From contig CAVSKH010000003.1 in the NCBI GenBank assembly GCA_963728505.1, positions 513,352-577,351 on the forward strand: a stretch of 64,000 nt of DNA, given 5' to 3'. The first letter of the stretch is position 1; each line of letters begins with the position of its first letter. Below are positions 3,331 through 59,404 of this stretch, one piece after another. Under the pieces are notes generated by a model. The model ran no database searches. It saw only the letters and a list, made by a program, of their open reading frames with translations, and had not been told where the DNA came from. The position numbers and the translations under genes were made by a program. Source of the DNA: an uncultured Actinomycetota bacterium. GTDB lineage: Bacteria; Actinomycetota; Actinomycetes; Propionibacteriales; Nocardioidaceae.

Positions 3331-6300
3331 CTATCGGGGCGACACCGTCACCAGACGCATCGCAGCGTAGGGCCAGCGCTGCACCAGGTCGCTCACCGTC
3401 GCCCCTGCCGGCATCGCCACCGGGGCTGCGCTGCACTCGTCCACGCTCGAGCCGGCGATCGCCAGGAGGAGCACTCGCGTGAACCTCGCCAGCCCGGTCA
3501 GGTCCACGTCGATCGGCACTGCCCGCGGCATCCGCGCCTGCAGCGGCACGCTCAACGGGTTGCGCCTGGCACCTCCGACCTGCCAGCCCGCAGGAGGCGC
3601 CGGGTTGCCCCCGGCGACGGCGGCCCGCGCCCAGTCCACGATGCCGGCGGCCGGGGTGCTCAGCAGCGTGGTCTGCGAGGAGTCGGTGCGCCACAGCAAC
3701 ATCGCGTACGCCGACCCCGCCGGGATCGGGCGGCTGTCCCGGTGGTGCAGGAGCACGTCCACGGTGGAGGGCTCGGAGAAGACCAGCCACCGCCCACCCG
3801 TCACCGACCGGGGCTGCACCGTCTCGAGCAGGTCCACCTCGGTGGCGCGGGCGTCGGGGTCGAGCGGTGTCTGCCACGAGGGGCGATAGACGGCCAGCGG
3901 GTGGCCGCCGACGTCCGAGAGCGACAGGTCGGGCCCCAGCCGGCTGCCGCCGACGACGGCGTTCCACAGCGCACCGTTGATGTAGCGACCCGGCGGCAGC
4001 CGGAGCCGTGCCCGCTCCAGCTGCACCAGGTCACCGAAGGCATCGGTCCACAGCCCGGTCGGCACCACCGAGGGGTAGCGCCAGCGGAAGGCGGTCTGGA
4101 AGGTCCAGAGCTGGTAGGACAGCACGTTGCGCGCGCTGATCACCTGGCCGCCGTACGCCGGCGCGGAGGGCGGGTCCTGCCGTGGCCGCACGGTGATGTC
4201 GGGGCTCTCGAAGAGCGTCTCCGCCGTGGCGGTCGACGCTCGCCTCGGGTTGGCCATCGGGGTGGGGAACCGACGACGGTCGTCACGCGGATGCACCCGC
4301 AGGTAGGTGCGGGAGGGTTCCTCGGCGGCGGCCAGGTCGACCTCCCACACGCCTCGGGCCTGGATCCCCGCCCGCAGCATCCGAGGGGCGGTCGCATCGG
4401 CGGGATCGTGCCAGATCGAGAGGTCCTGGACCGCGGCCTGCGGCAGGCCGTTCACGAACGGCGGGGCGGGCCAGGTGTGGTTGGTCGAGGGCGCGGCGTC
4501 GCGCTGCCCCTTCCAGACCCCGGTGACGGTGCCGACGTAGACCTCGCGGGGATTGGCGGGGTCGACCACCACGGCGTACGCCGGGTCCAGGGGTCCGATC
4601 GTCCCGGCAGGCGCAGGGGGGGAGGCGGGGTTCATCGCGCTCCGCAGCCCGGCGCCGACGAGGGCCGCGCCGGCGTCGTCCCACAGGTAGCAGGTGTCGA
4701 TCCCGGTGTTGGTGGGGTCACCGGTCGTGGTCAGGTAGAAGTCTGTGCCGCCGGGGACGAGTCCGATGTCGGTGAGCACGGTTCCGGCAGGCACGGTGGC
4801 CGGGCTGAGCAGCACGGTGGCCGTCCACTGCCCAGGCGGGTCCTCGACCCACCGGACCACGCCGCGGGAGAACAGCACCACCAGGCTGGTGGGCGACTCC
4901 CACTTGGCCGTGACCACGCCGCGCATCGGCCCCACCTGGCCGGTGACTCCGACCCAGGGCGCGGCGACCAGCGGTCCGAGGGCGGCATCGGTGGGCACCC
5001 CGCGGTAGGACTGACCGGGACGCTCGGTGCCGTTGGCGAAGCGGGGATCGGTCGCCGCGCCGTTGGGGTAGGGCAGGACGCGCCAGGCGTTGGTGCCGGT
5101 CGTGCCCACGTTGTCGCTGACCCAGACCCGACTGGTGCCGAGCGCCAGCCGAGCCGCGTTGCCGGTGCCTGTGGGGATCATCGAGGTGCCGGAGTAGAAG
5201 TCGGAGATCCCTTGCTGGTCCTCACGGTCGCCGCTGGCGACGGCACCTCCGGCCCATCGGGAGATCGGCCCCACGAAGCCCCACTGCGGCTGGCTCATCC
5301 AGGTCCCGCAGGTCCACTGCGTGACGACGTACTGACCGAGCCGAGGGTGGAAGACGGTGCCACCGCCGTCCCCCTCGAAGGTCATCTCCCACATCGTGTC
5401 GCCGGAGCGCACCTGGGTCCCGTTGTCCTGGAAGCCGGAGGCGACGAAGTGGTGCGACGTCGGGTGGGCGGCGACGAAGGTGGGTTGCAGCACGGCGAGC
5501 CCGGTGCAGCGCGAGGCGAAGCTGTTGACCCGCCCCGCCTGCGACGAGTGGTAGACCCCGCCGTCGCAGCCGACCCAGACATGACGATCGCCTGCCACGG
5601 TGACCGGCACGACGCGGTGGACGTCGGCGTGGACGTTGTTGCCGATCAGGCCCGTGCGGTTGGCACCCTCTCCGGCGCCGGCCGGCTCGGTTGGTGGCGG
5701 CGGTTCGGCCGGAGGTCCGGTGCGAGAGACCCCCGGGGCGGCTCGCAGGACGAAGGGGGTGGCAGGTGCCGGCGGGCCCGCGGGCGCCGCGGCCACGTCG
5801 TAGCACCACAGGCTGGCGGCCCAGCCGTCCCCGTCGCGGGGCTCGATGGTGGATCCGCCGATGAAGACCCGGTCGTTGCCGTCGACGACGTCCACCGCGA
5901 GGGCCTGGTCGTAGTCACCCTGGGCGCCCCAGGTCTCGAGGTGCACGCCACCGACGCGCTGCGCCACCGGCTGCGCGGCGGTCGGAGCCAGCGTGATGTC
6001 CTCGACCCGGAACAGCGCCGGTGTGTCGGGCTGGGCGCTGCCGGCGGTCTGCGGCAGGCCGGTGAGGACGTAGAGCCGGTTGCTCCCGGGCGCCATCGCC
6101 AGGCTGCTGCGGCCCTGGATCCCGGTCGCGGAGCCGGGGTTGTTGCAGCTCACCACCCAGGAGAACGTCGCCCCGTCGTTGTCGCTGACCGCAATCCCGA
6201 GGGCATCGATGGCGATGACGACGACGTTGCCCGGCAGCCACACCACGTCGGTGACCTCGGGCGTGGACTGGCCTGCGGCAGGACCGGTCGGACCGAAGAC

Positions 6301-7062
6301 CAGGAGGTCGACGGCGCCGAGCTTCGACCACTGGTACTCGTCGTGCCCGCCCGGCGCAACCGGGCCGACGTGGGTCCGCGCGCCGAGGTAGAGGCCGTCG
6401 GTGGTGGCAGCGAACACCTGGTCGGCGTCGGCGTCGGTGGACTTGCCGGCCGTGGTGCCGGGCTTGCGCACCAGCCGGTAGATCCCCTTCCCCTCGAGGA
6501 CCCCGATCCCGGCCTCGTCCTCCCACGGGTTGGCGCCCACCGGCGCCGTGGCCGGGTGGGCGGCAGCCAGCACCCCCAGGCCGCCGAAGGCACCTTCGCC
6601 GATGCGGGAGAGCCCCGGTGTGGGCTCCCCGGTGCCGACGAGCACGAAGTCCTCGTCGGCGTCGTCACCGAAGTCCACCAGCAGCGCGCCGCACGACTGG
6701 GCGTTGTTGGCCCCGCCGGAGCGCGCCGACCGGTCGGCCCAGCCACCGACCGGTTCCCAGGTGCTGCCGCCGTTGCCGGAGTACCAGACCCCACCCATCG
6801 CCGAGGCGGCGTAGATCCGCTTGCCGTCGTCGGAGATCTCGAGGTCGCGGACCCGTCCGCTGACGCGGGGGCGTCCGCCCGCCTGCCCGCGGCGCACGAC
6901 GGAGGGCCCGATCGGCACCCACCGGTGCACGTCGCTGTCGGGGAAGAGCATGCTCGGCGCGGCGACGGCCTCCGCCAGGGCGGAGGGGTCGAAGGCTCCG
7001 GTCCGCAGGTCGATGAACCGGTGCCGGATGCGGGCCCGCCCCCGCCGGGTCAGCCGTCTCAT
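3331..7062 (-). CDS. large hypothetical protein with Asp-box/BNR-like beta-propeller repeats (last gene of giant operon)
   Basis: 1243-aa ORF. Asp-box-like S-x-N-x-G-x-T-[WF] repeats: YSGNGGSTWEPV (about 6750-6800), VSDNDGATFSWV (about 6157-6190), VSDNVGTTGTNAW (about 5080-5130). Its ATG overlaps the upstream stop (ATGA at 7059-7062). The opposite-strand ORF 3742..7464 is an R/G/P-rich shadow. Confidence 0.8.
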   Translation of the reverse strand: MRRLTRRGRARIRHRFIDLRTGAFDPSALAEAVAAPSMLFPDSDVHRWVPIGPSVVRRGQAGGRPRVSGRVRDLEISDDGKRIYAASAMGGVWYSGNGGSTWEPVGGWADRSARSGGANNAQSCGALLVDFGDDADEDFVLVGTGEPTPGLSRIGEGAFGGLGVLAAAHPATAPVGANPWEDEAGIGVLEGKGIYRLVRKPGTTAGKSTDADADQVFAATTDGLYLGARTHVGPVAPGGHDEYQWSKLGAVDLLVFGPTGPAAGQSTPEVTDVVWLPGNVVVIAIDALGIAVSDNDGATFSWVVSCNNPGSATGIQGRSSLAMAPGSNRLYVLTGLPQTAGSAQPDTPALFRVEDITLAPTAAQPVAQRVGGVHLETWGAQGDYDQALAVDVVDGNDRVFIGGSTIEPRDGDGWAASLWCYDVAAAPAGPPAPATPFVLRAAPGVSRTGPPAEPPPPTEPAGAGEGANRTGLIGNNVHADVHRVVPVTVAGDRHVWVGCDGGVYHSSQAGRVNSFASRCTGLAVLQPTFVAAHPTSHHFVASGFQDNGTQVRSGDTMWEMTFEGDGGGTVFHPRLGQYVVTQWTCGTWMSQPQWGFVGPISRWAGGAVASGDREDQQGISDFYSGTSMIPTGTGNAARLALGTSRVWVSDNVGTTGTNAWRVLPYPNGAATDPRFANGTERPGQSYRGVPTDAALGPLVAAPWVGVTGQVGPMRGVVTAKWESPTSLVVLFSRGVVRWVEDPPGQWTATVLLSPATVPAGTVLTDIGLVPGGTDFYLTTTGDPTNTGIDTCYLWDDAGAALVGAGLRSAMNPASPPAPAGTIGPLDPAYAVVVDPANPREVYVGTVTGVWKGQRDAAPSTNHTWPAPPFVNGLPQAAVQDLSIWHDPADATAPRMLRAGIQARGVWEVDLAAAEEPSRTYLRVHPRDDRRRFPTPMANPRRASTATAETLFESPDITVRPRQDPPSAPAYGGQVISARNVLSYQLWTFQTAFRWRYPSVVPTGLWTDAFGDLVQLERARLRLPPGRYINGALWNAVVGGSRLGPDLSLSDVGGHPLAVYRPSWQTPLDPDARATEVDLLETVQPRSVTGGRWLVFSEPSTVDVLLHHRDSRPIPAGSAYAMLLWRTDSSQTTLLSTPAAGIVDWARAAVAGGNPAPPAGWQVGGARRNPLSVPLQARMPRAVPIDVDLTGLARFTRVLLLAIAGSSVDECSAAPVAMPAGATVSDLVQRWPYAAMRLVTVSPR

Positions 7063-10000
7063 GACGCCGGCCCCTCGGTCTCGGGGTCAGGCGTGGGGCT
7101 CACCCGGATCCAGCCCTCCTGCGCCTGGTGCGGCAGCCGCGGCAGGTACGCCGTCTGGGTGGCGGCGAGGATCGGGTCGTCGCGCCAGGTGAGCTCCCCG
7201 GTTCGCCGGGTGAAGCTCTGCTTGTCGCCGAGCAGGCCGACCAGCGGCAGCCGGATCTCCGCCGGGTCGACCAGCACGGGCCCCACCCGCACCGAGGGCA
7301 TCACCTTGGCCAGCCCGGGCGTCACCCAGCTGTCGGCGAGCGCCAGGTCCTTGCGCGGCAGCACCCCGGACGTGACGTGCGCCCGCCCTGCAGGAAGCAT
7401 CAGCAACGTGAGGGTCACCGGCCGTCGGGGACGCACGAACAACCGCCCCTGGGTCACGACGTAGGGGTGGTCCAGCGGGGACTCCCCCGGCAACCCCTGT
7501 TGCTCCGCGGTCCCGAGCAGGCCGAGCTGTGCCACCTGCCGGCCGCTCTCCCGGGCGTGCTCGGCGAGCGCGGCGTCGACGATGTGGAGGTGCTCGAAGT
7601 CGTCGCCGACGAACCATCCGACGAGGGCGTCGTCACTGCGCGCGAGGGTCCCGAGATTGACCTCCACCAGCTGGTCCCCGAGCGCGTCGAACGCTGCGCG
7701 TCGCGCCTGCTCCCCTCCAGGGGCGGTCACCTCGAGCTCGTCGACGTCGTCGGGGACGTCGAGGCACAGCGTGGTGCGCACCACCGCGAGCGGACGGCCG
7801 ACCAGACCCGCGACCGTGCCGCTGCCGAGCGCACCGAAGGTGTCGACGCTCCACAGGGTGGAGTCGACCGCACGCAGCATCACCGCGAGTGCGCTGGCAC
7901 TCGGAGGCGGTCCGGCCTCTCCCGCCCTGGCGGAGGCGTCGGCGCGCACCAGGGCGGCGGCGATCTCGGCGACCAGCCGGGAGCGGTCCGGCACCCCGTC
8001 GGGAGGGGATGCATCGGGAGGCAGGGGCCGGCCCGGAGCAGGCTCCCAGCTCACCGCTCCGGTGACGGGGTCGTGCCCGAGCTCGCCGATGGGCTCGCCG
8101 TCGATGCCGAAGACCTCGAGGGTCTCGTCGATGTGGTCCGGCAGCAGGAAGCCGGCCACCGGGTTGGTCGCCGAGGCCGGGTCGAGCTGGTCGACGTAGG
8201 CCTCGCCGAGGGAGTCCGGGGTCGAGCCGGAGGGGGCCGAGGCGTCCACCAGCCGCCACAGCCACCGCGCGGAGCCCTGGAACCGTGGTCGCATCCGCAC
8301 CATCCGCGCTCCGCCGTCGACCTCCAGCTCCACCGTGGACTGCAGGTCGTCGAGCACCGGGTCCGGCGCCGAGACGGTGCGACCGTAGGCGTCGACCAGC
8401 CGCAGCGCGTCCAGCCGCAAGGTGCCCCCGAACAGCGGGGTGGGCACTCCGGACGCGACCGGCTTGCCGCCGGGGTCACGTTCGACCACCCCGACGAAGT
8501 CGATGCCGAGCAGCTGTTCGCGAATGCCGTCCAGCGAGGCCGAGACCAGGTCCAGCGGCGCGCCGAGCTCTGCGAGTCGTTGCAGCACGGTCGCGTCACC
8601 GAAGGAGCTGCGAGCGGCGGTGGCCTGGCGTTGCAGCTCACTGCCGACCCAGTCGGACAGCGTCGCGTGCAGCGAGTCGGCCAGCCCCGGCCCGAGCGGG
8701 CTGCGGCCGGTGAGCGTGGTGGTCACCGAGCCACCGCCGGCAGCGGCGGGGTCGTCGGGCGAGAGGTCGAAGCCGTCGACGCGCCACCCGCTGGTGGTGG
8801 CCTCACCCTGGAGCGTGACCTGCCACTCCACCCACAGCGGCACCCAGGGCTGGCGCCAGGTGGTGTGCGCCACCGGGCTGGGTGGCGTGCCTCGGACGAT
8901 CGAGAAGCGGGCGATCTCGGCGGCGACCTGCGCCTTGCCCGCGACCTCGTGGACCGTGTGACCCGACCACGACGACGTCGAGGGCGCGGCGTCGCGGGTG
9001 TTCGCGTCGTTGGTCGCGAAGTGCACGTGGGCCGACCCGTCGAAGGTGCCGTCGACGCCGTAGAGCCGCACCACCTCGGCCGCGAGCCGCGAGGCGACCG
9101 CGCCCTGCGCCCCCGACGGTGGCGTCGAGGCAGCGGCCAGCCAGCGGTGGCCGTAGGGGTTGAGCAGCACCGCCTCGCGCACCACGGTCGTGACCTCGTC
9201 GGGGACGGCGCCCGACCCGAGGCCGGGCAGCACGGTGGCACCGTCCACCACCCCGTCGTACGCCGGGACGGCAGCACCGGGGTAGCGGCAGGCCAGCAGG
9301 CCGTTGTCGTCGTACAGACCGTCGCCGTGGTGACGGTGGCTGGGGTGGGCACCGCGAACCGCCAGGATGAAGGGCGCCGGCCGGTGGTAGCGCGGGGCGG
9401 GACGCTCGACCTCGCGCACCTGCGGGGTCGGCGGTGGCGGCTTGGGTGGCGGGTCCTGCTGGCGGCCGCGCGGGCGCGCCGTCCCCGGGTCGGCGCCGGT
9501 CGCGGCGCCACCCTTCCCCTTCGTCCTGGCCGTGCGGATGTCCTCGAGGTCGAAGGTCTGCTTCCAGGCCACCGTGGAGCCGAAGCCGAGCGTCTTGGCC
9601 CGCACGGTGCGATCGCGACCGGCGTCCGCTGCCTGGGTGGTGGCACGCAGCGCGGCGTTGATCGGGGCACGGCCCTTGCGGCCCACGGTCATCGGGCCGG
9701 CGGCGAGGGTGTCCTCGGCGCGGAGCCGGTCCGGCCGCGCACCGGGCACGGGCGTCCCCGGAAGCGCCCAGAAGCCACTGTCGTGCTCGCGCCGCCCCAG
9801 GTCGTCCAGCCCGTCGCTGCTCCCCAACCGGTTGACCAGGCCGGCGGCCATCGCGGCCACGACGTCCTCGACAGCGGCACGCCGCTCGTCGTCGCCCTCG
9901 TGCAGCACCGCTGCGCCGAAGGCAGCGACCACGTCGTCGAGGTCCGAGCCCAGTGCGACCGAGAGCTGGTCTGGTCGCGGAGCGTCGTCGGCGGCGGGCA

Positions 10001-11048
10001 GGAGCCCGTCGACCGGAACGCCGAGCACGCTGCCGTGGAGCAAGGTGTCGTAGCGGGGCAGCGAGTCGCCGATCACCACCGAGGCCGCCTGCGAGACCGG
10101 GTAGGAGCCCTTGAACGAGGTGGAGTCCAAGGCGCCCGAGATCCGGCGCCCGTCGGAGCCGAGGATCTTGGTCGTCGGCTCGTCGTCGGGGGCATCGAGG
10201 CCGAGACCCTCCTTCAGCCGACCGATGCGGGGGTCGACAGCCGTCAGCACGGACTCGTCGCCGTCGTGGTCGACCGTCCAGCGCAACCCCGCCAGCACCT
10301 CGTCCAGGTGCTCGGGACCCCGCGCCGCGGCCAGCGGGTCGTGGGCCTGCTCGCGCCACCAGCCGGCGACGGTGTAGGTCGCCTGGCTCTCCTCCCAGCC
10401 GTCGGGGGCGTCCTGCGCGAGCGCCTCCAGGTCGTCCAGCGGGTCATGGAACCCGAACCGCCCGGCGCTCGCGGCGTACGACGCGGTCCAGATCAGCCCG
10501 TCGGAGGCGCCGGTCAGCGGGTCGAAGCGTGGGATGTCCGGGTCTGGCTGGTCGGGGAAGGTCCCGGTGAACTCGGCCAGTGGGACGACCACCGCGGTGC
10601 GTGCGTCGACCACCCAGCCGGTGGCCTGCACGCGGCTGCGCCCGATCGGCTGCAGGGTGCGGACCACGACCCAGGTGTCCGGCAGCCGGGGCATGCCCAA
10701 GGTCTCGGTGGCCGCGACGTGTCCGCCTGCGAGCAGCGCGTCCGGCATCGCCCAGTGCAGGTGCACTCCCGGGGACATCGGGGTGTGCTCGGCGAACGGC
10801 GCCGGGTCGAGCTGACGGCCGGTGAGAGGCACGACGGCCACAGGGTCGGCGGCGGTCGAGACCAGGGCTTGGACGTCGACGGGCACCAGGATCCGTCGCC
10901 GGCGCGACAGCCCGCGGTCCCAGGTGCCCACCACCGTGCGGTCCACGCCGATCTTGCCCAGCACCTCGAAGCGAGGGGTGGCCAGCGCCTGCTCGATCAG
11001 CTTCGTGCTGAGCGAGGACGAGAACAGGTCGTCGAGCGGAGGTGTCAT
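7059..11048 (-). CDS. hypothetical protein, 1329 aa (giant operon gene 5)
   Basis: This is the lower part of track ORF 7059..12185. The real start is the ATG at 11048 (MTPPLDDLF...), which overlaps the upstream stop (ATGA at 11045-11048). Protein-like composition. Distinctive motifs: HLHWAMPDAL, TWRQPWVPLWVEWQV, NPVAGFLLPDHID. Pro-rich linker QQDPPPKPPPPTPQ at about 9421-9460. Confidence 0.75.
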   Translation of the reverse strand: MTPPLDDLFSSSLSTKLIEQALATPRFEVLGKIGVDRTVVGTWDRGLSRRRRILVPVDVQALVSTAADPVAVVPLTGRQLDPAPFAEHTPMSPGVHLHWAMPDALLAGGHVAATETLGMPRLPDTWVVVRTLQPIGRSRVQATGWVVDARTAVVVPLAEFTGTFPDQPDPDIPRFDPLTGASDGLIWTASYAASAGRFGFHDPLDDLEALAQDAPDGWEESQATYTVAGWWREQAHDPLAAARGPEHLDEVLAGLRWTVDHDGDESVLTAVDPRIGRLKEGLGLDAPDDEPTTKILGSDGRRISGALDSTSFKGSYPVSQAASVVIGDSLPRYDTLLHGSVLGVPVDGLLPAADDAPRPDQLSVALGSDLDDVVAAFGAAVLHEGDDERRAAVEDVVAAMAAGLVNRLGSSDGLDDLGRREHDSGFWALPGTPVPGARPDRLRAEDTLAAGPMTVGRKGRAPINAALRATTQAADAGRDRTVRAKTLGFGSTVAWKQTFDLEDIRTARTKGKGGAATGADPGTARPRGRQQDPPPKPPPPTPQVREVERPAPRYHRPAPFILAVRGAHPSHRHHGDGLYDDNGLLACRYPGAAVPAYDGVVDGATVLPGLGSGAVPDEVTTVVREAVLLNPYGHRWLAAASTPPSGAQGAVASRLAAEVVRLYGVDGTFDGSAHVHFATNDANTRDAAPSTSSWSGHTVHEVAGKAQVAAEIARFSIVRGTPPSPVAHTTWRQPWVPLWVEWQVTLQGEATTSGWRVDGFDLSPDDPAAAGGGSVTTTLTGRSPLGPGLADSLHATLSDWVGSELQRQATAARSSFGDATVLQRLAELGAPLDLVSASLDGIREQLLGIDFVGVVERDPGGKPVASGVPTPLFGGTLRLDALRLVDAYGRTVSAPDPVLDDLQSTVELEVDGGARMVRMRPRFQGSARWLWRLVDASAPSGSTPDSLGEAYVDQLDPASATNPVAGFLLPDHIDETLEVFGIDGEPIGELGHDPVTGAVSWEPAPGRPLPPDASPPDGVPDRSRLVAEIAAALVRADASARAGEAGPPPSASALAVMLRAVDSTLWSVDTFGALGSGTVAGLVGRPLAVVRTTLCLDVPDDVDELEVTAPGGEQARRAAFDALGDQLVEVNLGTLARSDDALVGWFVGDDFEHLHIVDAALAEHARESGRQVAQLGLLGTAEQQGLPGESPLDHPYVVTQGRLFVRPRRPVTLTLLMLPAGRAHVTSGVLPRKDLALADSWVTPGLAKVMPSVRVGPVLVDPAEIRLPLVGLLGDKQSFTRRTGELTWRDDPILAATQTAYLPRLPHQAQEGWIRVSPTPDPETEGPAS

Positions 11049-17000: not shown

Positions 17001-20000
17001 GTAGGAGGGGAGCTCCGCCGGGTCGGAGGGGACCACCAGTCGCCGGTTGATGCCGAGTCCGCCGCCGATGCCGGTGACGAAGAACGCCGGTGGTCCACCG
17101 ATCGGGCCGTTGAAGGCGCCGAACACGAAGAACGACGGGGTGCCGGCGTCGTCGGTGTAGCCCCCGAAGACCGAGAGCCCGTAGATGCCGAAGCGGCCCA
17201 GCAGCATCCCCACGTACGAGGTGACGTCGCGGTCACCGATCCGGTCGACGCTCTTGAGCATCCCCCCGGCCAGCGAGACCCCGGAGAGGTCGGCGGAGAC
17301 CGCGAAGCCGTTGAGGTCGACCGCCCACTGGCCGATGTCGAAGAAGTCACCCCCCAGCCAGGTCAGCGACAGCTGGTCGACCGCGGCGGTCAGCCCGAAG
17401 AGCTCGACCCGGCCGTCGAAGAGCAGGGTGACGCTGCTGACCGTTCCCTCGACCTCGGTGGCGTTGAAACCGATCTGCTCCAGGTAGAGCGGGCCGAGCT
17501 GGCGCTGGATGACCAGCCACCAGGGGCCGGGTGGAGGCCCGGCGCGGACGGTGAAGGAGACGTCCTCGTCGCCCGGGTGCTTCTGCACGGCGAGGGCAGG
17601 GCTGAAGGCAGGACGTGCCGAGGGCGAGGACTCCCCCGCGTCGGCCAGGATCGAGCTGGCGACCGGGTTGGTGCCCGCCCCGCCGTTGGGGGCGAACGAC
17701 AGACCGGTCAGCTCCAGCTGGGCGCCGCCGCCGACGCCCGCACTGACTGCCTCGGCGTAGACCCGGAAGGCGATGCCGTCGAGACTGACCGCGCCCAGGT
17801 CGAGCAGGGGCCCGGTGGTGTTGGTGAACCGCAGGCCCACCCCGGCCACCGTCACGCCGGGCTCGAAGCTGAAGGCATAGGTGTCGGGTGACCCGGGGGT
17901 GCGTACGCCGCGCACGGCGTACACCGTCAACCCGGGGGTGACCTCCGGGACGAGCCAGGTGGCGTCGACGTCCAGCTCGACCTTCACCTCTCCGTCGGCG
18001 ACGGTGTAGCGCCCGTCACCGGCCAGCGTCAGGCTGAGGCCGAGCTGCTTGTCGTCGGCGCCCCCGGTCGCCGCCAACGACAGCCTGATCGGGTCGAGCG
18101 TCAGCGACAGCGGGTCGGTGTCGGTCGCGACGTTCCACAACAGCCGTTCCAACCGGTGCAGCAGCGCCTCGGGATCGAGCAGGTCGAGGGCGAAGGTCGG
18201 GTCCACGGCGAGGTCGGTGGCGACCGCGCTCTCGGTGAGCACGACACCCCGCAGCATCCGGGCGGCCCGCGCTCCCAGCAGGTCGTCCAGGGCGTCGACC
18301 AGGATGCCGCCGGCCAGCCCCACCGCGAGCGAGAGCAGCCAAGCCGGGGCCAGGTCCTCGTCCACGTCGTCGGCTCCCCCCGGGGTCGTCGCCTGGATGA
18401 CCGCGCCCAGGACCGGTGGCTGGGCGTCCAACGACCAGCGCAGCTGCACCGAACGATCGCCCGAGTCCTCCAGTGCCAGGCCGATGCCGATCATGCGGTC
18501 GCCGGGTTCCCGACTGCCGGCACGGGCCTCCACCATCGGACGCAGCGTGACCGGCCCGGCAGCGACCGGGAAGGGACCCAGCCGAGCGGCGACCGCGACA
18601 CCGGAGGGCGAGAGCTCCAGGGCTTCGAGCACCACCCGACCCACGTCGGGGATCTCCCAGTCCGCGGTGAGGACGACCACGGGAAGGGTGCCTGTGGTGT
18701 CGAGGGTGAGGGTGACCGCCTCGCTGCCGTCCGGCGCGACGGCCCCGAAGCCGAACGTGGTGAAACCCGTGCCCGGGGTGGCGCGAACCAGGCTGCCCCC
18801 GGGGTCGAGGGCCCGAGCCAGTGCGGTGGCCGCCGTGCCTGCCAGCCCCGGGAGCCGGCTCAGCAGCACACCGGCCGGGTCCTGGGCGAAAGCGCGGATC
18901 GCCGCCTCGTCGAAGCTCCCACCCTGCCGCAGCAGCAGGGCATCGCCGAGGTCGCTCACCAGCTGCCCGACGTCTCGCCGCAGACCGGTGCCCGCACCCA
19001 GATCAGCCACCTCGTCGAGGACCAAGGGGATCAGCAGTCCCGCAGCGGTGTCGGCGAGGTCGGCGATGCCCGGCCCGTCGGGGTAGAGCGACAGCGGCGG
19101 TGAGCCGTCGCGCAGCAGGTCGACCCGCAGGTCGGGGTCGACCCGCACCCTCAGACCCGGCCCCTCGACCGAGACCTCCGCGGAGACGTGTGGCGAGGGT
19201 GGCAGGCCCAGGGCCAGCACCACCCCGGCGGACAGGCTGGTGGTCACGGTGCGGGCCGCGCTGCCGGCGCCGACCTGCTCCTCCAGCTCGGCGGTCAGCG
19301 CGAGCCGCAGCCGGCCGGCGTCGTCGGCGTAGTCGACGCGCAACCCGTCGACCAGCGGCAGACCAGGGTCGGTGCCGCGGTCGGGGGCGACCAGCGGCGC
19401 GACCGCGTCGAGCAGCGCGACCCCTGCCGGACCGAGAGCCAGGTCCTCACTGCGGACCAGCCCGGCGAACCATCCGGCCGGGTCGGTGACGAGCCCGACC
19501 GGCAGCGCGAAGCGTCGTACGCCCTCACTCGTGGCCGGCAACAGGCCGAGCACCGCGAAGAGCTGCTCCAGCAGCGACCGGCCCTCGGCGGAGGCGAGCT
19601 CCAGGGCGGTCAGCGCCAGCGTCTTCACGCCCAGAGCGGGAAGCAGGACCAGGGCGAGCTCCTCGATCGCGTCCTGGTCGGGCGCGGGCCACACGGGGAC
19701 CGGGCGCACCACGCCCCCGGGCGCCGCCCACTCCAGCGCCACCCTCGGACCGGAGCCGGCGCCGGCCTCGACCACTGCTCGGAACCCGCCGAGGGCAGGG
19801 TCGAGGGCGCCCAGGGTGAGACGTCCGACGGCCTGCTCCGCTCCCGCGACGACACTGAGGTCGAGGGCGGCGAGGTCCACCCCGGCCTCGAGGTGCAACG
19901 ACGCGACGAGCTCCCCGGTCGCGAGGTCGAGGCCGATCGTGCCGGGTCCGACCGTCCAGGCCAGCGCGCTTCCGGTGCCCCCCGCTGCCGGAACGAGCGC

Positions 20001-23000
20001 ACGCAGGGCGCCCGCGATCCTCGTCGGGTCGAGCGTCACGCGGCCGCGCAGGGTGGCGGCGGGGTCGTGCAGCAGCCGGTCGAGCGCGTCGGGATCGAGG
20101 CCACCGTCGCGGAGCAGACCGAAGCTCTCCAGCAACGCCCGCAGGTCCGGCGAGGCTGCCGAGACCCGGTCGCAGACCGAGGACAGGAGCAGCCGGACCT
20201 CGGGGACCGCGCCGGTCACGGCCGCTCTCACCTCGCCGAGCACGAGATCGGGGGCGACCTCCCCGGCCCGGACCACCCAGCGCTCCCGCTCGATGCCCAG
20301 CCCGCGCACCTCGTGCAGCACCAGCTCGCTGGATCCGGGGCTGCCGTCGAGAGGCACCTCGACGCGCGCCGACATCCACCGCACGTCGCCGGCGCCGGCG
20401 ATGGTGCCGGGACCACCGACCAGCCAGCCGTCGTGGACGCCGAGGTGGACATCGACGACGACCGCGCGCGCCACAGCAGGGCTCAGTCCGGAGTCCTCCC
20501 GATCGATCCTCACGACCTCGAGGGCCGCGCCCACCCCGACCAGCAGACCACCGAGATTCAGGTCGAGGACCGGCACGTCCACCGCCGCGTGCAGCGCCGT
20601 CACGCCGCCGGAGCCGGTGACCGCCGTCTCGGCAACCGCGGCGTCGAGGCGAGCATGCAGCCCGTCGGCGACGTGAGCGGCGATGCCGTGCATCAGCGTG
20701 TCCTGGTCCAGGGAACCGAAGATCGCGGTGACGCTCTGCCCGGGGCTCACCGTGGCCGCCGGAGGCGGCCCCTCGCCGCGGATGATCCTGGCGCTGCGTG
20801 CCACCAGCAGCCGCATCCGTTGCAGGGCCGAGCACTCGTGGGCCAGCAGCTCGGCCGGCCAGGCGAGATCGGGGTCCGTCGCACCGATCACCGTCAGCGT
20901 CGACAGCAGCCGCAGTGCGTCCCCGCTCAGTCCGGACGACAACGCGGTGGTCCCGACCTCACCCCAGGGGCAGCCGACCGTCACGAGCGCGACGTCGAGC
21001 GCGGGGGCTGCCGCGGTGATCGCGGCCGCCGCCCGGACGACCGCGGCTCCGGCAGCGCCGTACCCGACGAGAGTGAGCGACTCGTTGCGGTCCGACAGCA
21101 GCGTCCGCAGCCGTGCGGCCTGCTCCTCGACGCCGCCCCGGTCGGGACGGTCAGCGGCTGCCGCAGCAGGTAGCGGCAGCCGCACCGCCCACACCCCGGG
21201 CCCTGTCGCCGGCACCCGCTGCTCCACAACGGAGGTGCCGCTCAGGTCGAAGACGCTGCCCAGGTCAGGTTCGGTTGCCCACAGCTCCTCGCAGCCGACG
21301 TGCACCACAGCCGTGGGCACGTCGGGCAAGGCCTCGGCGAGCAGTGAGCCGGCCGCGCCGCGCGCGACCAGCTCGTCGTACGACACCCCGTGGAGGGTGA
21401 GCGGGTGCACTCCTGTGGGGAGGGAACCGGGCTCGCCCACGATTCCGTCAGTGGTGCGCCAGCGGTCGGCCAGCTGGGCGAACCCGTCGGCGACCGAGTC
21501 GCGACCGACCATCAGCTCGACCACGTCCGGCAACGTGCTGGCGCGCAGCATCCCGGCGATCGCCTGCGGCTCGGGCGGTTCGGATCCCAGCAGCACGTCG
21601 ACCTGGGTCCCGGCCTGCTCGGGCGGCCGAGGGCACCCCGGGTCCAGCCACACCGCGAGACCGGGGGCACGTGCTTCCCCCGCGACCGGGCAGCGGTACG
21701 GCGTCCGCGCGCTTCCGGTTCCCAGCGGCGAGGTGCGCGTGAAGCCGCTGAGCAGCGCCGCGACCGGACCCAGCGCAGCGCCGACCCGCGAGCAGTCGAA
21801 CACCAGGTCGGCGACCCACTGCTCCACCGCCGCGACCGGGTCGCCGCCCACGAGGGCGCCCAGGCGCAGGTGTGGGCCGCTGCCCGCCCATCCCAGCAGC
21901 TCGATGACCGCGTCCAGCTCGGCGGAGCCGAAGCGCGCGATCAGCGCAGCCAGCGCACGCTCGATGGCGTCCCAGTCCGGGCTCGGAAGGGTCAGCCGCC
22001 CGTCCGGCCCGATCTGGGGCACCGGGATCGGCACCCGGAAGTCCGGATGGTTGAGGAGCTCGGGGGCATCGAGCTCCAGCGCGAGGTCGTCGGCGCTCAG
22101 CCGCGCGGTGAGCCCCGACGCCGGCAGCCAGACCAGCTCCACGCCCACCGAGTCCGCGACCACGGCCAGGTCCTCGGTGCCGAGCCGGGCCCGGGTCCCG
22201 TCGGTGTTGGCGAGCGCCACCCCGACGGTGGCGCCGTCTGCAAAGACCACTCGTCCGGAGGCGGGCGTCATCGTGAGCAGGCGCAGCACCGCCGACGTCG
22301 TGGCCGCAACCCCTGACGAACCCGCCACACCTGGGAAGACCGGCACCTCGGCGGCCAGGGCGAGGTCGGCGTGCAAGGTCCATGTGCCGTCGACCTCCTC
22401 GCGCCACAGCAGGAGGGCGAGCGGGTCGACCAGGACGATCCGCCACGGGTCCGCTTCGGTGCCCGCCCCGGGGAGCGCGCCGACAACGCCGGTCAACGCC
22501 TCGGCGAGGCTGGTCAGCGTCTCCGTCATCGCCGAGGCGTCGGAGAGCAGCTCCTCCCAGTAGCCCTGGATCGCGGCGACCGGGTCGGCGAGCAGGGCGG
22601 TCGCACTGATGTCGCTGACGCCGCTGGGCGGGTCGAGCCCCAGCAGGTCGGCGAGCAGGTCTCCCACGGCTCCGAGCTGTTCCAGAGCCGTGGTCAGCGC
22701 ACCGCCCACCACGCTGCCTCCGGCGTCGAGCGCGGCCTCCGGCGTGCTGAGGTCGAGCACGTCGTGGTGCTCCCCGAGCCGCACGTCGTGCAGGGTCAGC
22801 CGGAACGTCGGCGTGGGCGTGGCACCCGAGGTCAGCTCCGGAAGCCCGAGTCCCACGCGGATCCCGCCGACGTGCGGGTCGGTGCCGGTGACCAGTGCGG
22901 TGCCTCCTGCCTCCGTGCCGAAGGCGGCCTCGAGGCGAACGTCGGGGATCGCGGTACAGGACCCGGAGCCGGTGTCTGCCCGGAAGAGGTCGACCACCGC

Positions 23001-24128
23001 GCGGGCGGCCGCGCCGGCGCGTGTCCCGAGTGCCGCTTCGACCCAGGGTGTGAGCACCGGCTGGCCGCCGACGCCGTCCGTCACGCGCACTCCGATGCTC
23101 AGCTGCAACGGGTCGAGGTCGAGGGTGACCGCATCCCGCGCCAGGTCAGGAGTGCCGCCGAGCAGCAGCCCGAGCTGCGTCAGCCAGGCGTCGCGGGAGC
23201 CATCGTCCTGGACGACGGTGCGTGCCCAGGTGACCAAGGCACTCAGGCCCTGGCTGGGCAGATCTGCCAGGGGCAGCGGCGGCAGGCCGGTGACGTCTCG
23301 CAGCCCGAGCATGCCGGCGAGCCCGGCGAAGGGACGCAGCTCGGAGACGTCGAGGTTGCCCAGCGCCTCGGCCTGGGCCCGGATCAGTCCCGAGGCGAGG
23401 TCGAGGACGTCGGTGAGGATCTCGTCGGGTGAGCCGACGTCGAGGGTGAAGGTGCTCGGGCTCGGGGCGCCGGGCAGCTGCAGGTCGCGCAGCGTCATCG
23501 CGAAACCCACGTCGAGGCCGTCGGTCGGCACCCGCAGGGTCGCCCCCAGCCCGCCGAGAGCCGGCTCCCGCGCCGCCGGCGGGGTGTCGGTGAAGGTGGC
23601 GTCCACACCGATCTCGATGTCGCCGCCCTCACGTCCGAGCAACAACCAGGCGGGCGTGTCACCTCCCCCGGCGGGCAGGCTCGAGCCGCGCTCGGCGAAC
23701 CGGAACAGCGGCACGTGGATGCTGGTGGTGACCCGCGGCGGACCACCCGTGGTGGTGTGGGTGAAGCCGACGCCGAGGTGCACAGCGTCACCGGTGTCGG
23801 TGTCGGTCGCCGGGCCGTCGTCGACCACGGCGTAGACCGTGACGTCGGGGTCGTCCTCGTCGAAGAGCGGCACCCACTTCTGCCCACCCTGCTGGCGCTG
23901 GTCCGGCGGACCGAGGATCTCGTCGACGAACCGGACCAGGGCATCGCGCTGGTCCTCGTCGGCCAGCACGTGCTTCATCCCGTGGGGGGTGACCGGACCA
24001 CTGGGCCCCTCCCCCCCACCCACGGGATCGCCGAACCAGCTGGCGTTGGGCTGGCCGTCGGGGGTGAGCAGCCCCAGCGCGGTGGCCAAGTCACCGAAGG
24101 AGCCGAAGGAGGACTGGTCGATGCTCAT
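14028..24128 (-). CDS. giant hypothetical protein, 3366 aa (giant operon gene 2)
   Basis: Uninterrupted 10.1-kb ORF with protein-like composition. All overlapping plus-strand ORFs are R/G/P/H-rich shadows. No signal peptide. It has a lipase-like elbow with Ser replaced (LTLVGYGAAG, 21048-21065). It also has a Gly/aromatic-rich C-proximal module (GGYHPDFHREGYP, FFVTGIGGGLGI) at about 16190-18050. Confidence 0.8.
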   Translation of the reverse strand: MSIDQSSFGSFGDLATALGLLTPDGQPNASWFGDPVGGGEGPSGPVTPHGMKHVLADEDQRDALVRFVDEILGPPDQRQQGGQKWVPLFDEDDPDVTVYAVVDDGPATDTDTGDAVHLGVGFTHTTTGGPPRVTTSIHVPLFRFAERGSSLPAGGGDTPAWLLLGREGGDIEIGVDATFTDTPPAAREPALGGLGATLRVPTDGLDVGFAMTLRDLQLPGAPSPSTFTLDVGSPDEILTDVLDLASGLIRAQAEALGNLDVSELRPFAGLAGMLGLRDVTGLPPLPLADLPSQGLSALVTWARTVVQDDGSRDAWLTQLGLLLGGTPDLARDAVTLDLDPLQLSIGVRVTDGVGGQPVLTPWVEAALGTRAGAAARAVVDLFRADTGSGSCTAIPDVRLEAAFGTEAGGTALVTGTDPHVGGIRVGLGLPELTSGATPTPTFRLTLHDVRLGEHHDVLDLSTPEAALDAGGSVVGGALTTALEQLGAVGDLLADLLGLDPPSGVSDISATALLADPVAAIQGYWEELLSDASAMTETLTSLAEALTGVVGALPGAGTEADPWRIVLVDPLALLLWREEVDGTWTLHADLALAAEVPVFPGVAGSSGVAATTSAVLRLLTMTPASGRVVFADGATVGVALANTDGTRARLGTEDLAVVADSVGVELVWLPASGLTARLSADDLALELDAPELLNHPDFRVPIPVPQIGPDGRLTLPSPDWDAIERALAALIARFGSAELDAVIELLGWAGSGPHLRLGALVGGDPVAAVEQWVADLVFDCSRVGAALGPVAALLSGFTRTSPLGTGSARTPYRCPVAGEARAPGLAVWLDPGCPRPPEQAGTQVDVLLGSEPPEPQAIAGMLRASTLPDVVELMVGRDSVADGFAQLADRWRTTDGIVGEPGSLPTGVHPLTLHGVSYDELVARGAAGSLLAEALPDVPTAVVHVGCEELWATEPDLGSVFDLSGTSVVEQRVPATGPGVWAVRLPLPAAAAADRPDRGGVEEQAARLRTLLSDRNESLTLVGYGAAGAAVVRAAAAITAAAPALDVALVTVGCPWGEVGTTALSSGLSGDALRLLSTLTVIGATDPDLAWPAELLAHECSALQRMRLLVARSARIIRGEGPPPAATVSPGQSVTAIFGSLDQDTLMHGIAAHVADGLHARLDAAVAETAVTGSGGVTALHAAVDVPVLDLNLGGLLVGVGAALEVVRIDREDSGLSPAVARAVVVDVHLGVHDGWLVGGPGTIAGAGDVRWMSARVEVPLDGSPGSSELVLHEVRGLGIERERWVVRAGEVAPDLVLGEVRAAVTGAVPEVRLLLSSVCDRVSAASPDLRALLESFGLLRDGGLDPDALDRLLHDPAATLRGRVTLDPTRIAGALRALVPAAGGTGSALAWTVGPGTIGLDLATGELVASLHLEAGVDLAALDLSVVAGAEQAVGRLTLGALDPALGGFRAVVEAGAGSGPRVALEWAAPGGVVRPVPVWPAPDQDAIEELALVLLPALGVKTLALTALELASAEGRSLLEQLFAVLGLLPATSEGVRRFALPVGLVTDPAGWFAGLVRSEDLALGPAGVALLDAVAPLVAPDRGTDPGLPLVDGLRVDYADDAGRLRLALTAELEEQVGAGSAARTVTTSLSAGVVLALGLPPSPHVSAEVSVEGPGLRVRVDPDLRVDLLRDGSPPLSLYPDGPGIADLADTAAGLLIPLVLDEVADLGAGTGLRRDVGQLVSDLGDALLLRQGGSFDEAAIRAFAQDPAGVLLSRLPGLAGTAATALARALDPGGSLVRATPGTGFTTFGFGAVAPDGSEAVTLTLDTTGTLPVVVLTADWEIPDVGRVVLEALELSPSGVAVAARLGPFPVAAGPVTLRPMVEARAGSREPGDRMIGIGLALEDSGDRSVQLRWSLDAQPPVLGAVIQATTPGGADDVDEDLAPAWLLSLAVGLAGGILVDALDDLLGARAARMLRGVVLTESAVATDLAVDPTFALDLLDPEALLHRLERLLWNVATDTDPLSLTLDPIRLSLAATGGADDKQLGLSLTLAGDGRYTVADGEVKVELDVDATWLVPEVTPGLTVYAVRGVRTPGSPDTYAFSFEPGVTVAGVGLRFTNTTGPLLDLGAVSLDGIAFRVYAEAVSAGVGGGAQLELTGLSFAPNGGAGTNPVASSILADAGESSPSARPAFSPALAVQKHPGDEDVSFTVRAGPPPGPWWLVIQRQLGPLYLEQIGFNATEVEGTVSSVTLLFDGRVELFGLTAAVDQLSLTWLGGDFFDIGQWAVDLNGFAVSADLSGVSLAGGMLKSVDRIGDRDVTSYVGMLLGRFGIYGLSVFGGYTDDAGTPSFFVFGAFNGPIGGPPAFFVTGIGGGLGINRRLVVPSDPAELPSYPFIYALDPYASIPEPMQALRDLNEYFGPERGTFWFAGGISFTCFSLVDGIAVIAVSFGNGLEINLMGLARMALPSPAAPLVSIELGLLARFSTSEGVFMIRAALTDNSWLLYEDVRLTGGFAFMVWWKGPLSGQFVLTIGGYHPDFHREGYPEVPRVGLSWQVSPQISIKGGSYFALTSEALMAGVGVEAVADFGWAWVRASFGADGLVYFDPFWFDVEVRASISAGVEIDTWLGTISFSITTGCGVHVWGPDFSGEATVEVGPCSVTVPFGSGAERPGIQQDWPGFVEKYLESAGDGVARAITAMSGRGSLPSATGGERSAPPPDGTVERPFEVYAEFELTVTTSLPTKKFAVGLPADVVTPVTLPDGAGTDLGLNPMGAGGLASRLVLRLERFDQDEGEWTDDAEDLAELAANLTGPGQRPEGSRLGRGSFPLGVWGVPDPPDTPAPALPSGDVLTTGNQVTLVAEPHLPTAGPTVSYYTVDIGKGRRPLPLQAEMDPRETILVRSAGVGVPHPTTTAGAIDQARRVLFASPPLLVTGGPQSNGRRSNLDRASYAGQVSAPPMFGTLADGLAAGHAGNVTREEMAAPESPTPRAQRDPRVVGFLASGADVAARRAGTTVSEARLPRRPAPTSESVMARLGRYLPTQLDVSVPPGAKVARTVTPAVLPRTGVGGTVRSFALGVGPAATAVAGITGFGGAASTGRAAGTTTTATPLRPGDVVALHAPDHKTDVDTAASRRPRLEIAGGSARVTTIRGDGVVLADRVQTGTAPVEPGTAYLVAQAGGVVVPDEGVAGWHSRSQVVSLGSGTALAAGCVLTLDNAGAAPTVTWCQAGEAVRGADTVLTSFSGFGADAPPRSLVVVVESADPEHVDEMGLALLGAVRARDAAGRPAEPVLVVNGTQVAAVYAVEAVPPGQPGGPDSLPGVATLAVRVATGSTWQVTGVLAGTETVQDTADRISRHGVPATTARLLAAPSGTGCSLRWRRGRRR

Positions 24129-24137
24129 GGTCGCGGC

Positions 24138-24734
24138 TCAGCCGTGCGCTGCCATCGGGCGGACCAGGAAGAGCTCGTCCTCGGCACCGATCGCGGCCGG
24201 GACGAGGGACTTGCCCACGCGGTCGTGACCGGCCGCGGCGGCGATCTCGCGGGCGAGGGTGAGCACGGACTCCCAGGCGAAGGCACGCAGGCTGTCGGCC
24301 CAGAGGTCGACGACGACCTGCGGGCCACGAGGGATCGCGACGGTGGCCATCATCAGGCCGCGAGGCTGGTCGGCGGTGCCGACCGCCAACGGGACGTCGA
24401 CGGCGCGGCGTGCCCGGCCGCTGAGCTGGTCGCAGTCGACGGGGATCGTGACCATGACCAACCCTGGGCTGCAGGCCAGGGTCACCTTGTCGGTGGCGAC
24501 CCGGAGCTCGTCGGCGCCGGAGACCCAGACCACGGTGCGGCTTCCAGCGGTGGGCAGGTCGGCGACCAGTCGGGTGGTGCGCTGCAGCAGCGGGACGGCC
24601 TGCTTGGCCGGGACCTCGATCCAGCGCGACAGCGAGCCCGGCTCGAGCTTGCCGCGGCTGGCGGTCAGCCAGGTGCCTGCGGCGAGACCGAGGACGTTCA
24701 CGCTCGATGCGCGGGTTCGGGCGGTGGGTGACAC
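24138..24734 (-). CDS. hypothetical protein, 198 aa (giant operon gene 1)
   Basis: GTG start at 24734 is preceded by ggagggg 6 nt upstream. The stop lies 9 nt before the giant gene's ATG. No family recognised. Confidence 0.65.
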   Translation of the reverse strand: MSPTARTRASSVNVLGLAAGTWLTASRGKLEPGSLSRWIEVPAKQAVPLLQRTTRLVADLPTAGSRTVVWVSGADELRVATDKVTLACSPGLVMVTIPVDCDQLSGRARRAVDVPLAVGTADQPRGLMMATVAIPRGPQVVVDLWADSLRAFAWESVLTLAREIAAAAGHDRVGKSLVPAAIGAEDELFLVRPMAAHG

Positions 24735-24876: not shown

Positions 24877-25089
24877 CTACCGGCCGTCGGCTCCGCAGTC
24901 GTTGACTCCTTCCTTCTCCAGGCAGATCAAACGCTTGTCCATCTGCTGCACGTCCGGCTCATTGACGAGCTCGATGACGGCGAAACCGCTGAGCAGCAGG
25001 GCAAGGGAGCTCATCGCCAGTGACGCCTTCGCAGCCGTGGAGGTGGGCGACCGGTCGGTCGGAGTGGGGGTGTCACGGAGCAGGGCCAT
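24877..25089 (-). CDS. small (70 aa) predicted membrane-anchored peptide with C-terminal Cys pair
   Basis: ATG at 25089 is preceded by GGAGG with 5-nt spacing. Product: MALLRDTPTPTDRSPTSTAAKASLAMSSLALLLSGFAVIELVNEPDVQQMDKRLICLEKEGVNDCGADGR. It has one hydrophobic helix followed by C-x9-C. Third-position GC is mostly high. It forms the lower part of track ORF 24877..25167. Confidence 0.55.
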   Translation of the reverse strand: MALLRDTPTPTDRSPTSTAAKASLAMSSLALLLSGFAVIELVNEPDVQQMDKRLICLEKEGVNDCGADGR

Positions 25090-25260
25090 GGGAACCTCCG
25101 GGTCGAGCGCAAGGGGGCGAGCACGTGCGACATTCGCCATCCTGCTCCCGGCTTCGGCAAAGGGCAACCGTCCGTCTGGTGGGCACCCCCTGGTCAGGAT
25201 GGGGCGTGCGGCAACCCGATCGGTAGCCCCTGGGCGGGGCCCCGGTGCACCCGATGAACC

Positions 25261-25629: not shown

Positions 25630-25661
25630 ACCCCCACCTCACCAGGTCGGTGGTGATGCGC

Positions 25662-26663: not shown

Positions 26664-26780
26664 CTGCAGCTCCGGTGAGGGATCTGGGTTCGCGCCCTGC
26701 GAGCCCAGAGGCAATGCTCACACACCCGGACAGATCGGGCCACGGTCGATGGTCCCGGCTGTCGACACGCAGGCCTGGGT

Positions 26781-55138: not shown

Positions 55139-55147
55139 CGCTGCCTC

Positions 55148-59380: not shown

Positions 59381-59404
59381 CGGTTCTCCTTTCCGCGGAC
59401 GAGG

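Follow-up and report, generated by a model that had tools for sequence, protein, structure and literature searches.

The stretch of DNA analysed here (the window) comprises 64,000 nucleotides of contig CAVSKH010000003.1 from an uncultured member of the Nocardioidaceae (assembly GCA_963728505.1), a metagenome-assembled contig of 1.07 Mb (ENA ERZ25039549), and carries a minus-strand cassette of six genes that an initial annotation, made by reading the sequence, had singled out as a tightly coupled operon. We refer to these genes, in the direction of reading, as G1 to G6. G1 (24138–24734) begins with GTG and encodes a basic protein of 198 amino acids (aa; 20.8 kDa). A spacer of 9 nt (GCCGCGACC, 24129–24137) separates it from G2 (14028–24128), whose product is a giant, acidic, scaffold-like protein of 3366 aa (344.2 kDa) that contains a DUF6603 domain at aa 2207–2669 (16122–17510). 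Three core subunits follow, G3 (12025–14028; 667 aa, 70.5 kDa), G4 (11045–12028; GTG start, 327 aa, 36.5 kDa) and G5 (7059–11048; 1329 aa, 139.9 kDa), and the cassette closes with a terminal subunit, G6 (3331–7062; 1243 aa, 130.3 kDa). Together the six proteins amount to 742 kDa. From G2 onwards the genes are joined by start/stop overlaps (TGATG at 14026–14030, GTGA at 12025–12028, and ATGA at both 11045–11048 and 7059–7062), and the originally described layout of six open reading frames (ORFs) with four overlaps and one 9-nt spacer was confirmed base by base.

Codon composition supports these ORFs as coding frames. In a window of ~72% G+C, the G+C content at third codon positions (GC3) is 0.91–0.94 in the six frames (0.91 in G1 and 0.92 in G2), compared with 0.44–0.58 at codon position 2, which identifies all six as real coding frames and bears out their initial annotation as genuine genes. 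Shine-Dalgarno-like purine-rich stretches precede most of the starts. The longest possible ORFs exceed the chosen starts for G3 (719 aa) and G5 (1708 aa); the coupled starts fit because orthologs in a Gemmatimonadota metagenome-assembled genome (MAG) measure 661 and 1276 aa, and most G5 homologs 1254–1337 aa. Overlaps of 4 nt also occur at ortholog junctions in Marinobacter and Gemmatimonadota. Consensus promoter and terminator scans of both cassette ends gave no match, a result of little weight in a 72% GC organism, and Rfam and tRNA scans of the window likewise gave none. None of the six proteins contains a signal peptide or a transmembrane or hydrophobic helix, in agreement with the earlier reading, and signal peptides are also absent from the cassette orthologs examined, whether from monoderm or diderm bacteria. 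A motif scan of the six proteins found neither HExxH nor a conserved instance of GxSxG, again as first read. The accompanying claim that Walker A motifs are lacking needs a small amendment: G1 has one literal match (GHDRVGKS, aa 169–176; 24207–24230), but G1 orthologs do not retain its Lys and Ser, so that the match is attributable to chance and is not a P-loop. As read from these features, the cassette products are signal-less proteins predicted to be made in fixed proportion.

The gene order, on whose recurrence in other genomes the initial annotation had made its reading depend, is conserved in several phyla: G2-G3-G4-G5-G6 was found by tblastn in essentially all of the 79 loci fetched, wherever the contig was long enough. 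In the Gemmatimonadota MAG, for example, the G2 to G6 products measure 3337, 661, 326, 1276 and 1241 aa, with overlapping junctions. G1 lies directly 5′ of a DUF6603 gene encoding 3290–3405 aa in all three genomes checked (Roseisolibacter, Nocardioides and a third), beyond which the upstream neighbours are housekeeping genes that are unrelated between the three; the constant position of G1 before G2 and the unrelated genes further upstream delimit the unit as six genes, G1 to G6. G1 is accordingly a small partner with a constant place immediately ahead of G2, and its homologs (n = 67; identity 38–89%, alignment A5) share the motifs RLVADLP, VVW, CDQ, AVGT and FAWE, with no match for G1 in Pfam, PDB or PADLOC. 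Relatives of G5 occur in 510 of ~185,000 species-level genomes (one genome per species), from taxa that include Actinomycetota, Gemmatimonadota, Myxococcota (Myxococcaceae) and Alpha-, Beta- and Gammaproteobacteria. The actinomycetotal carriers include Nocardioides, Marmoricola, Kribbella, Catellatospora, Knoellia, Janibacter, Pedococcus, Angustibacter, Actinopolymorpha, Ilumatobacter, Thermoleophilia and Gaiellaceae; carriers among the Gammaproteobacteria include Marinobacter, Ketobacter, Haliea and Pseudoxanthomonas, and among the Betaproteobacteria Ideonella, Rubrivivax and Piscinibacter. When 68 loci were compared with the window copy, the median identities were 61% (G4), 51% (G3), 48% (G5), 44% (G6) and 43% (G2). 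Knoellia and Janibacter copies are ~45% identical to the window copy, as against ~50% for those of Gemmatimonadota and Myxococcaceae, and an accessory gene is common to subclades of Gammaproteobacteria and Intrasporangiaceae. The distance of these actinomycetotal copies, together with an accessory gene shared across phyla, indicates that the cassette has moved horizontally; its presence in so few genomes, with a phylogeny that cuts across taxonomy, further indicates that its function is not a housekeeping one. The six genes thus constitute one conserved, horizontally spread operon.

Shorter variants and natural gene fusions reveal which parts of the cassette belong together. DUF6603 proteins of ~950–1090 aa, ~33% identical to G2 over the domain, head related cassettes in which they sit with G3/G4- and G5-like genes; G2, at ~3300 aa, shares the full domain but differs from the short form in having ~2000 extra residues before it and ~700 after it. 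One such variant consists of a small gene, the DUF6603 gene, a G3-G4 fusion (991 or 772 aa), a G5 relative of 1355–1366 aa, and then a Kelch or phage-tail-collar gene, while others have separate G3 and G4 followed by G5 and a Kelch propeller. On a Streptomyces plasmid, DUF6603 is accompanied by a G3-G4 fusion of 743 aa, a relative of G5 and a gene of 454 aa. A minimal variant on a Paenibacillus sonchi plasmid (L088; NZ_CP068596.1, 171303–176654) comprises only a G3G4-like gene (685 aa) and one resembling G5 (934 aa plus 118 aa); it is surrounded by genes for a helicase, a PLD-like protein, IS630 and a group II intron, with no DUF6603 gene found by tblastn or annotation in the 31-kb stretch examined. 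G3 and G4 are encoded as one protein in the short variants at L004:13904–16879, L005:12868–15186 and L089:10961–13192, and G4 and G5 are fused in P0008, a 1618-aa protein of an Actinomycetota MAG (L009:9026–13882), and in P0450. The G3 part of the L004 fusion contains inserted tandem repeats (GSGYTS..P.V...GGGGSGATA), which suggests that this part tolerates surface decoration. Both kinds of fusion imply physical association, and the suggestion that the cassette encodes one multi-subunit assembly gains support from them. G3, G4 and G5 form an inseparable core, whereas the last position is modular, being taken by a putative BNR-type propeller here and by Kelch or phage-tail-collar proteins in the shorter variants.

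The first reading had assigned Asp-box-like beta-propeller repeats to this last gene. Two loose motifs of the kind are indeed present in G6 (SGNGGSTW at aa 95, 6757–6780; SDNDGATF at aa 293, 6163–6186), but the corresponding profile match is weak: the G6 profile (alignment A7) reached the BNR-repeat glycosyl hydrolase 3b7f in PDB with E 1.8e-4, and G6 orthologs matched BNR or Sortilin only below threshold. An N-terminal BNR/Asp-box-type beta-propeller in G6 is therefore weakly indicated by its sequence. G6 evolves fastest of the cassette genes, showing the weakest conservation in 44 of 68 loci, and in Kribbella sp. a second paralog of 1354 aa (L050:17642–21706), ~28–30% identical to G6 proteins, follows directly after it. 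Further genes gather at this end of the cassette. A Trp-rich Asp-box protein of ~405 aa (with motifs such as RSxDxGxxW; alignment A6) adjoins the 3′ end in 20 of the 79 loci, in either orientation (for example at L036:18662–19879, L031:18581–19948 and L026:17671–18882, and in 17 other loci), and is common to Gammaproteobacteria and Intrasporangiaceae-type Actinomycetota at 44–48% identity. It has no signal peptide and no Pfam or PDB match, and comparison with G6 by hhalign uncovered no hidden paralogy; its linkage suggests that it may be a seventh, clade-specific component. In eight loci of a clade that unites Betaproteobacteria, Gemmatimonadota and Gaiellaceae, an astacin/matrixin-like protease with the motif HEFGH and a PPC domain, without a signal peptide, is encoded (L084:17716–18843, L069:17420–18517, L070:8939–10072, L075, L079, L081, L058 and L065:13993–15075). 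It lies directly after G6, except that in L065 (Pseudoxanthomonas) it occupies the G6 position instead, and in L084 it is followed by an esterase (PF00756). In the short variant L004, a trypsin-like gene without a signal peptide directly precedes the DUF6603 gene.

DUF6603 (PF20248) is the sole curated family matched in the whole cassette. The assignment in G2 is secure (397 bits against a Pfam gathering threshold of 27 bits; E 1.3e-118; model positions 1–458 of 502), and two full-length orthologs (3290 aa) give the same result with no other Pfam domain. Pfam assigns the family no function, and DUF6603, PF20248 and IPR046538 are mentioned in no paper of the collection searched. A search for G2 homologs with the DUF6603 region returned none above ~1050 aa and missed the G2 of the window itself, from which it appears that giant proteins are under-represented in the searched protein set, so that counts of G2 relatives are lower bounds; full-length orthologs were taken from the DNA loci. 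Compared with three of these, G2 is 32–59% identical over its full length, with a peak of 56–82% at aa 2100–2700. Its C-terminal 700 aa are as well conserved as the rest of the protein (34–56% identity among orthologs), tblastn alignments extend to residue ~3358 in most loci, and the variable C terminus by which polymorphic toxins are recognised is consequently not found. Neither internal repeats within G2 nor paralogy between it and the rest of the cassette proteins were found. An AlphaFold2 model of aa 2150–2750 (mean predicted local distance difference test score, pLDDT, 85.9) consists almost entirely of long beta-hairpins, with ~30 long strands. A Foldseek search of PDB with this model returned only large antiparallel sheets, namely Deinococcus SlpA, the FimD usher, porins, LptD and the ApoB100 beta-belt, at TM-scores of 0.15–0.27 and root mean square deviations of ~20 Å. 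These long antiparallel beta-meanders are its only fold neighbours, and scores in this range indicate a generic resemblance to large sheets without any sign of homology; we accordingly rejected homology to outer-membrane barrels or to ApoB. Outer-membrane beta-barrels differ further in that G2 lacks a signal peptide and is encoded in monoderm Actinomycetota, which have no outer membrane.

The same fold neighbours are the starting point for a reading in which the cassette builds a physiological structure on lipid or other hydrophobic surfaces, for example as a coat or organiser of storage-lipid or polymer inclusions or in the handling of envelope lipids, with the DUF6603 sheet acting like the beta-belt of an apolipoprotein. 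ApoB100 and LptD are both among the neighbours, all parts of the cassette are under strong purifying selection, and many of the carriers (Marinobacter, Ketobacter, Haliea, Nocardioides, Ideonella and Rubrivivax) belong to hydrocarbon- or lipid-associated or storage-polymer-forming genera. We nevertheless regard this reading as improbable, given the low TM-scores, the rarity of the cassette and its taxonomy-crossing phylogeny, and the absence of any Pfam match to AsmA, TamB or a lipid-transfer family; it also leaves the swappable propeller and fibre genes and the proteases unexplained.

Elsewhere in G2, aa 1011–1026 (21051–21098; LTLVGYGAAGAAVVRA, containing LVGYGAAG) resemble the nucleophile elbow of an alpha/beta-hydrolase, with Gly at the position of the serine in all four full-length orthologs. 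G2 may thus contain a dead hydrolase-like domain, judging from this short segment; a scan of the protein for alpha/beta regions by hydrophobic-moment periodicity was uninformative. The homologs of G5 number at least 499 at full length (46–79% identity), none of them named, and an alignment of 53 sequences from several phyla (A2) reveals three invariant motifs: HLHWAMPD (aa 96–103; 10740–10763), SHRHHGDG (aa 570–577; 9318–9341) and LPDHIDExxE (aa 969–978; 8115–8144). The AlphaFold2 model of G5 aa 1–1200 (pLDDT 75; predicted template modelling score 0.75) found no fold match by Foldseek in PDB (best E 0.5) or BFVD. In view of these invariant His, Asp and Glu residues, the description of the cassette proteins as non-enzymatic, part of the original interpretation, is not established, and the functional roles suggested there stay speculative. 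An alternative would therefore be a multi-enzyme complex in which G5, and perhaps G2, are novel metal-dependent enzymes for the synthesis or degradation of some polymer whose binding falls to the propeller. The invariant HxH (in HLHWAMPD), RHHxD and DHxxExxE signatures, retained across the 53 sequences at ~50% identity over 1300 residues, are what such enzymes might display, carbohydrate-active enzymes often contain BNR or Kelch propellers, and the hydrolase-like elbow of G2 would fit the picture. We consider this alternative distinctly unlikely, however, as Pfam, NCBIfam, PDB profile and fold searches brought no enzyme family to light, the nucleophile serine is missing from the G2 elbow in four of four orthologs, and no transporter, glycosyltransferase or precursor-synthesis genes are consistently linked.

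G3 and G4 are similarly without known relatives. Conserved motifs of G3 include LPQVVIKRRTLPWER, TPWLALVVIAEGE, DTELMMGDDDGFLAVV, WYRGP and DGREDLSLAAAFEIGRLLALS (alignment A4); no Pfam family was detected in any of 27 orthologs and no match in PDB, and hhalign uncovered no hidden paralogy between G3 and G5. G4 is the most conserved cassette gene in 64 of 68 loci, and a HMMER search of 1.84 billion representatives found relatives in 3093 clusters (50% identity, E ≤ 1e-3), either stand-alone (300–370 aa) or fused to G3 or G5, making this a large and wholly uncharacterised family. There was no Pfam or PDB match for G4, no consistent family in a Pfam scan of 29 orthologs, no Pfam domain in ten relatives of odd length, and no match in an exact-sequence look-up.

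More broadly, the initial verdict that the cassette fits no known system held up in all comparisons. The six proteins had no match in NCBIfam, PADLOC or PHROGs; PDB sequence and family-profile searches gave none for G1–G5 and only the weak BNR match for G6; and with Pfam, Foldseek of the two models and hhalign included, no characterised machine was matched. As far as these tools can detect, no described kind of system accommodates the cassette. Phage-tail-like machines, such as type VI secretion systems (T6SS), extracellular contractile injection systems (eCIS) and tailocins, offer the most obvious comparison, being likewise built from coupled structural genes without signal peptides, and the tail-collar fibre genes of variant loci and the effector-like hydrolases at the edge of the cluster add to the likeness. 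A very diverged machine of a known kind, whether phage-tail-like, an eCIS or T6SS baseplate, or a Tc (ABC) toxin, might also account for the very large subunits accompanied by a putative propeller, as in Tc toxins, and for G3 and G4, which recall tssF-tssG in their sizes (667 and 327 aa) and overlap. The searches speak strongly against it. No sheath, tube, spike (VgrG/PAAR) or gp25 family was found in the six proteins by Pfam or PHROGs, and the cassette borders on unrelated housekeeping genes; no ATPase family and no conserved Walker A were found that could represent the AAA+ ATPase of such machines (ClpV or Afp15-like). Comparison by hhalign with single-sequence E. coli templates gave probabilities of 0.2% for G3 against TssF and 0.1% for G4 against TssG, and neither TssF, TssG nor Baseplate_J was matched in 27 G3 and 29 G4 orthologs at E ≤ 5. 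The cassette is also absent from viral collections, with no tblastn match for G5 in 50,697 phage records and no relative of G4, DUF6603 or G5 among IMG/VR contigs by profile search. The lack of RHS, VRP1 and SpvB in any gene and of structural matches to the G5 model in PDB and BFVD extends this to the other candidates, and we regard descent from a known machine as very improbable.

Tc toxins remain the closest functional analogy for a complex that binds and then attacks a membrane. They too are operons of very large, ATPase-free, signal-less subunits, and their beta-propeller and variable target-binding parts have putative counterparts in the cassette. The cassette differs in lacking RHS/YD repeats, the TcA and TcB families, and a hypervariable C-terminal toxin: Pfam detected no RHS_repeat, SpvB, TcdB_toxin_mid or VRP1 in the six proteins, and no RHS or Tc structure was among the Foldseek matches of the DUF6603 and G5 models. 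A second point of reference is provided by the umbrella (Umb) toxin particles of Streptomyces. The cassette products would resemble these in being an actinobacterial multi-protein particle whose very large subunit is combined with partners of the lectin/propeller and trypsin-like types. Umb particles are built on ALF-repeat UmbC proteins that carry polymorphic C-terminal toxin domains. G2, by comparison, is uniformly conserved without a polymorphic end, and the trypsin-like gene in the window is not conserved with the cassette.

Genomic context bears on a different alternative, that of an intracellular anti-phage or cell-death system, in which the propeller would sense phage or stress and the DUF6603 sheet, possibly activated by a protease, would damage the cell's own membrane. 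The cassette components, accessory proteases and 405-aa protein lack signal peptides in every lineage examined, and no lysis or export genes are present. The patchy, phylum-crossing distribution is of the kind seen in mobile accessory systems, and several shorter variants adjoin toxin-antitoxin, AbiEii, TIR/NT5C, helicase or PLD genes. Conversely, PADLOC-DB v2, which includes no systems described after 2023, matched none of the six proteins at E ≤ 0.1, and only ~3 of 123 proteins flanking the long variant match any of its defence models; housekeeping genes lie upstream of the cassette, the NTPases, nucleases and other usual defence effectors are missing, and sequence conservation is unusually high. 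On balance, we judge an intracellular defence or regulated cell-death role to be rather unlikely.

We tentatively favour the interpretation, at less than even probability, that the six products form a single large complex acting as a modular recognition-and-attack device, directed to its target by the terminal subunit and to a membrane or surface by the DUF6603 sheet. According to this model, the proteins would build one complex, with a mass of at least 742 kDa if each is present once. Target binding, most probably to a glycan or to the surface of a protein, would fall to the propeller or fibre subunit, and a G3/G4/G5 chassis would couple it to G2, whose long DUF6603 sheet, amphipathic in appearance, would engage a membrane or other hydrophobic surface. 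The accessory proteases or esterases would serve as effectors or activators. The target could be another cell, in which case lysis would free the complex as it frees phage-tail-like particles, or it could be the envelope of the producer itself, in a regulated death upon infection or stress. We lean slightly towards an outward, competitor-directed role; particles that assemble in the cytoplasm would be expected to lack signal peptides, as the monoderm and diderm orthologs alike do. Several observations weigh against the recognition-and-attack model. With DUF6603 TM-scores of 0.15–0.27, its membrane-binding step rests on a generic resemblance, and searches of Pfam, NCBIfam, PADLOC and PHROGs detected neither a lysis cassette nor a gene for secretion, and neither an ATPase nor a toxin domain that could be recognised. 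G2 is conserved throughout, without a polymorphic C terminus, and the sequences are more strongly conserved than would be expected in an arms race. Intracellular proteins, too, can contain BNR, Kelch or PPC domains, and the invariant His/Asp/Glu motifs of G5 could mean catalysis rather than structure.

At a broader level, we see an even chance that the cassette represents a new class of machine, namely a six-subunit complex of ~0.75 MDa or more with novel folds, in which a fixed G3/G4/G5 core and the giant DUF6603 scaffold are joined by an exchangeable recognition subunit of the beta-propeller or fibre type. It would be spread horizontally through at least five phyla of soil and marine bacteria and would serve in conflict between cells or between phage and host, with a mechanism distinct from those of contractile, Tc and RHS systems and of known defence systems. 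Stretches of 21 kb of coupled genes under strong purifying selection across phyla are rarely kept without an important function, and here five of the six proteins belong to no curated family and neither of the two largest parts that were modelled has a structural relative. A new targeting and attack machine, or an immune complex, would join the short list of large bacterial nanomachines and offer a modular recognition subunit; a structure for the handling of lipids or polymers, or a new kind of enzyme complex, would likewise be new biology. Because carriers such as Marinobacter (M. manganoxydans MnI7-9), Janibacter (sp. HTCC2649), Nocardioides (N. agri MAH-18), Knoellia, Pseudoxanthomonas and Roseisolibacter (R. 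agri) are in culture, the function is directly testable.

The surroundings of the cassette in the window yielded some further observations. Upstream of G1, on the same strand, lie a 125-aa gene with no assigned family (25261–25638) and a gene for a weakly matched trypsin-like peptidase of 350 aa with a clear N-terminal signal peptide (25662–26714). These two, together with the MFS and FMN-dehydrogenase genes of the window, were considered as cassette members and rejected, being unlinked to the cassette in other loci. The 526-nt spacer 5′ of G1 contains a minus-strand ORF of 87 codons with a hydrophobic stretch (24877–25140), whose GC3 of 0.81 is below that of its neighbours and which has no relatives in other loci. 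DUF222 genes flank the cassette region on both sides (28670–30046 on the plus strand of the window, and L001:21260–22750); the window copy has an added HNH endonuclease domain, and DUF222 alone is recorded for the L001 copy. Finally, a minus-strand run of very hydrophobic genes at 53738–61679 (466, 497, ~700 and 309 aa), which by eye resemble membrane subunits of complex I or Mrp-type antiporters, is followed by a gene for a protein with a long His/Asp-rich tract (HDHDGHDHGDDHGDD), and the strong AT skew at 54–60 kb is attributed to this hydrophobic run.

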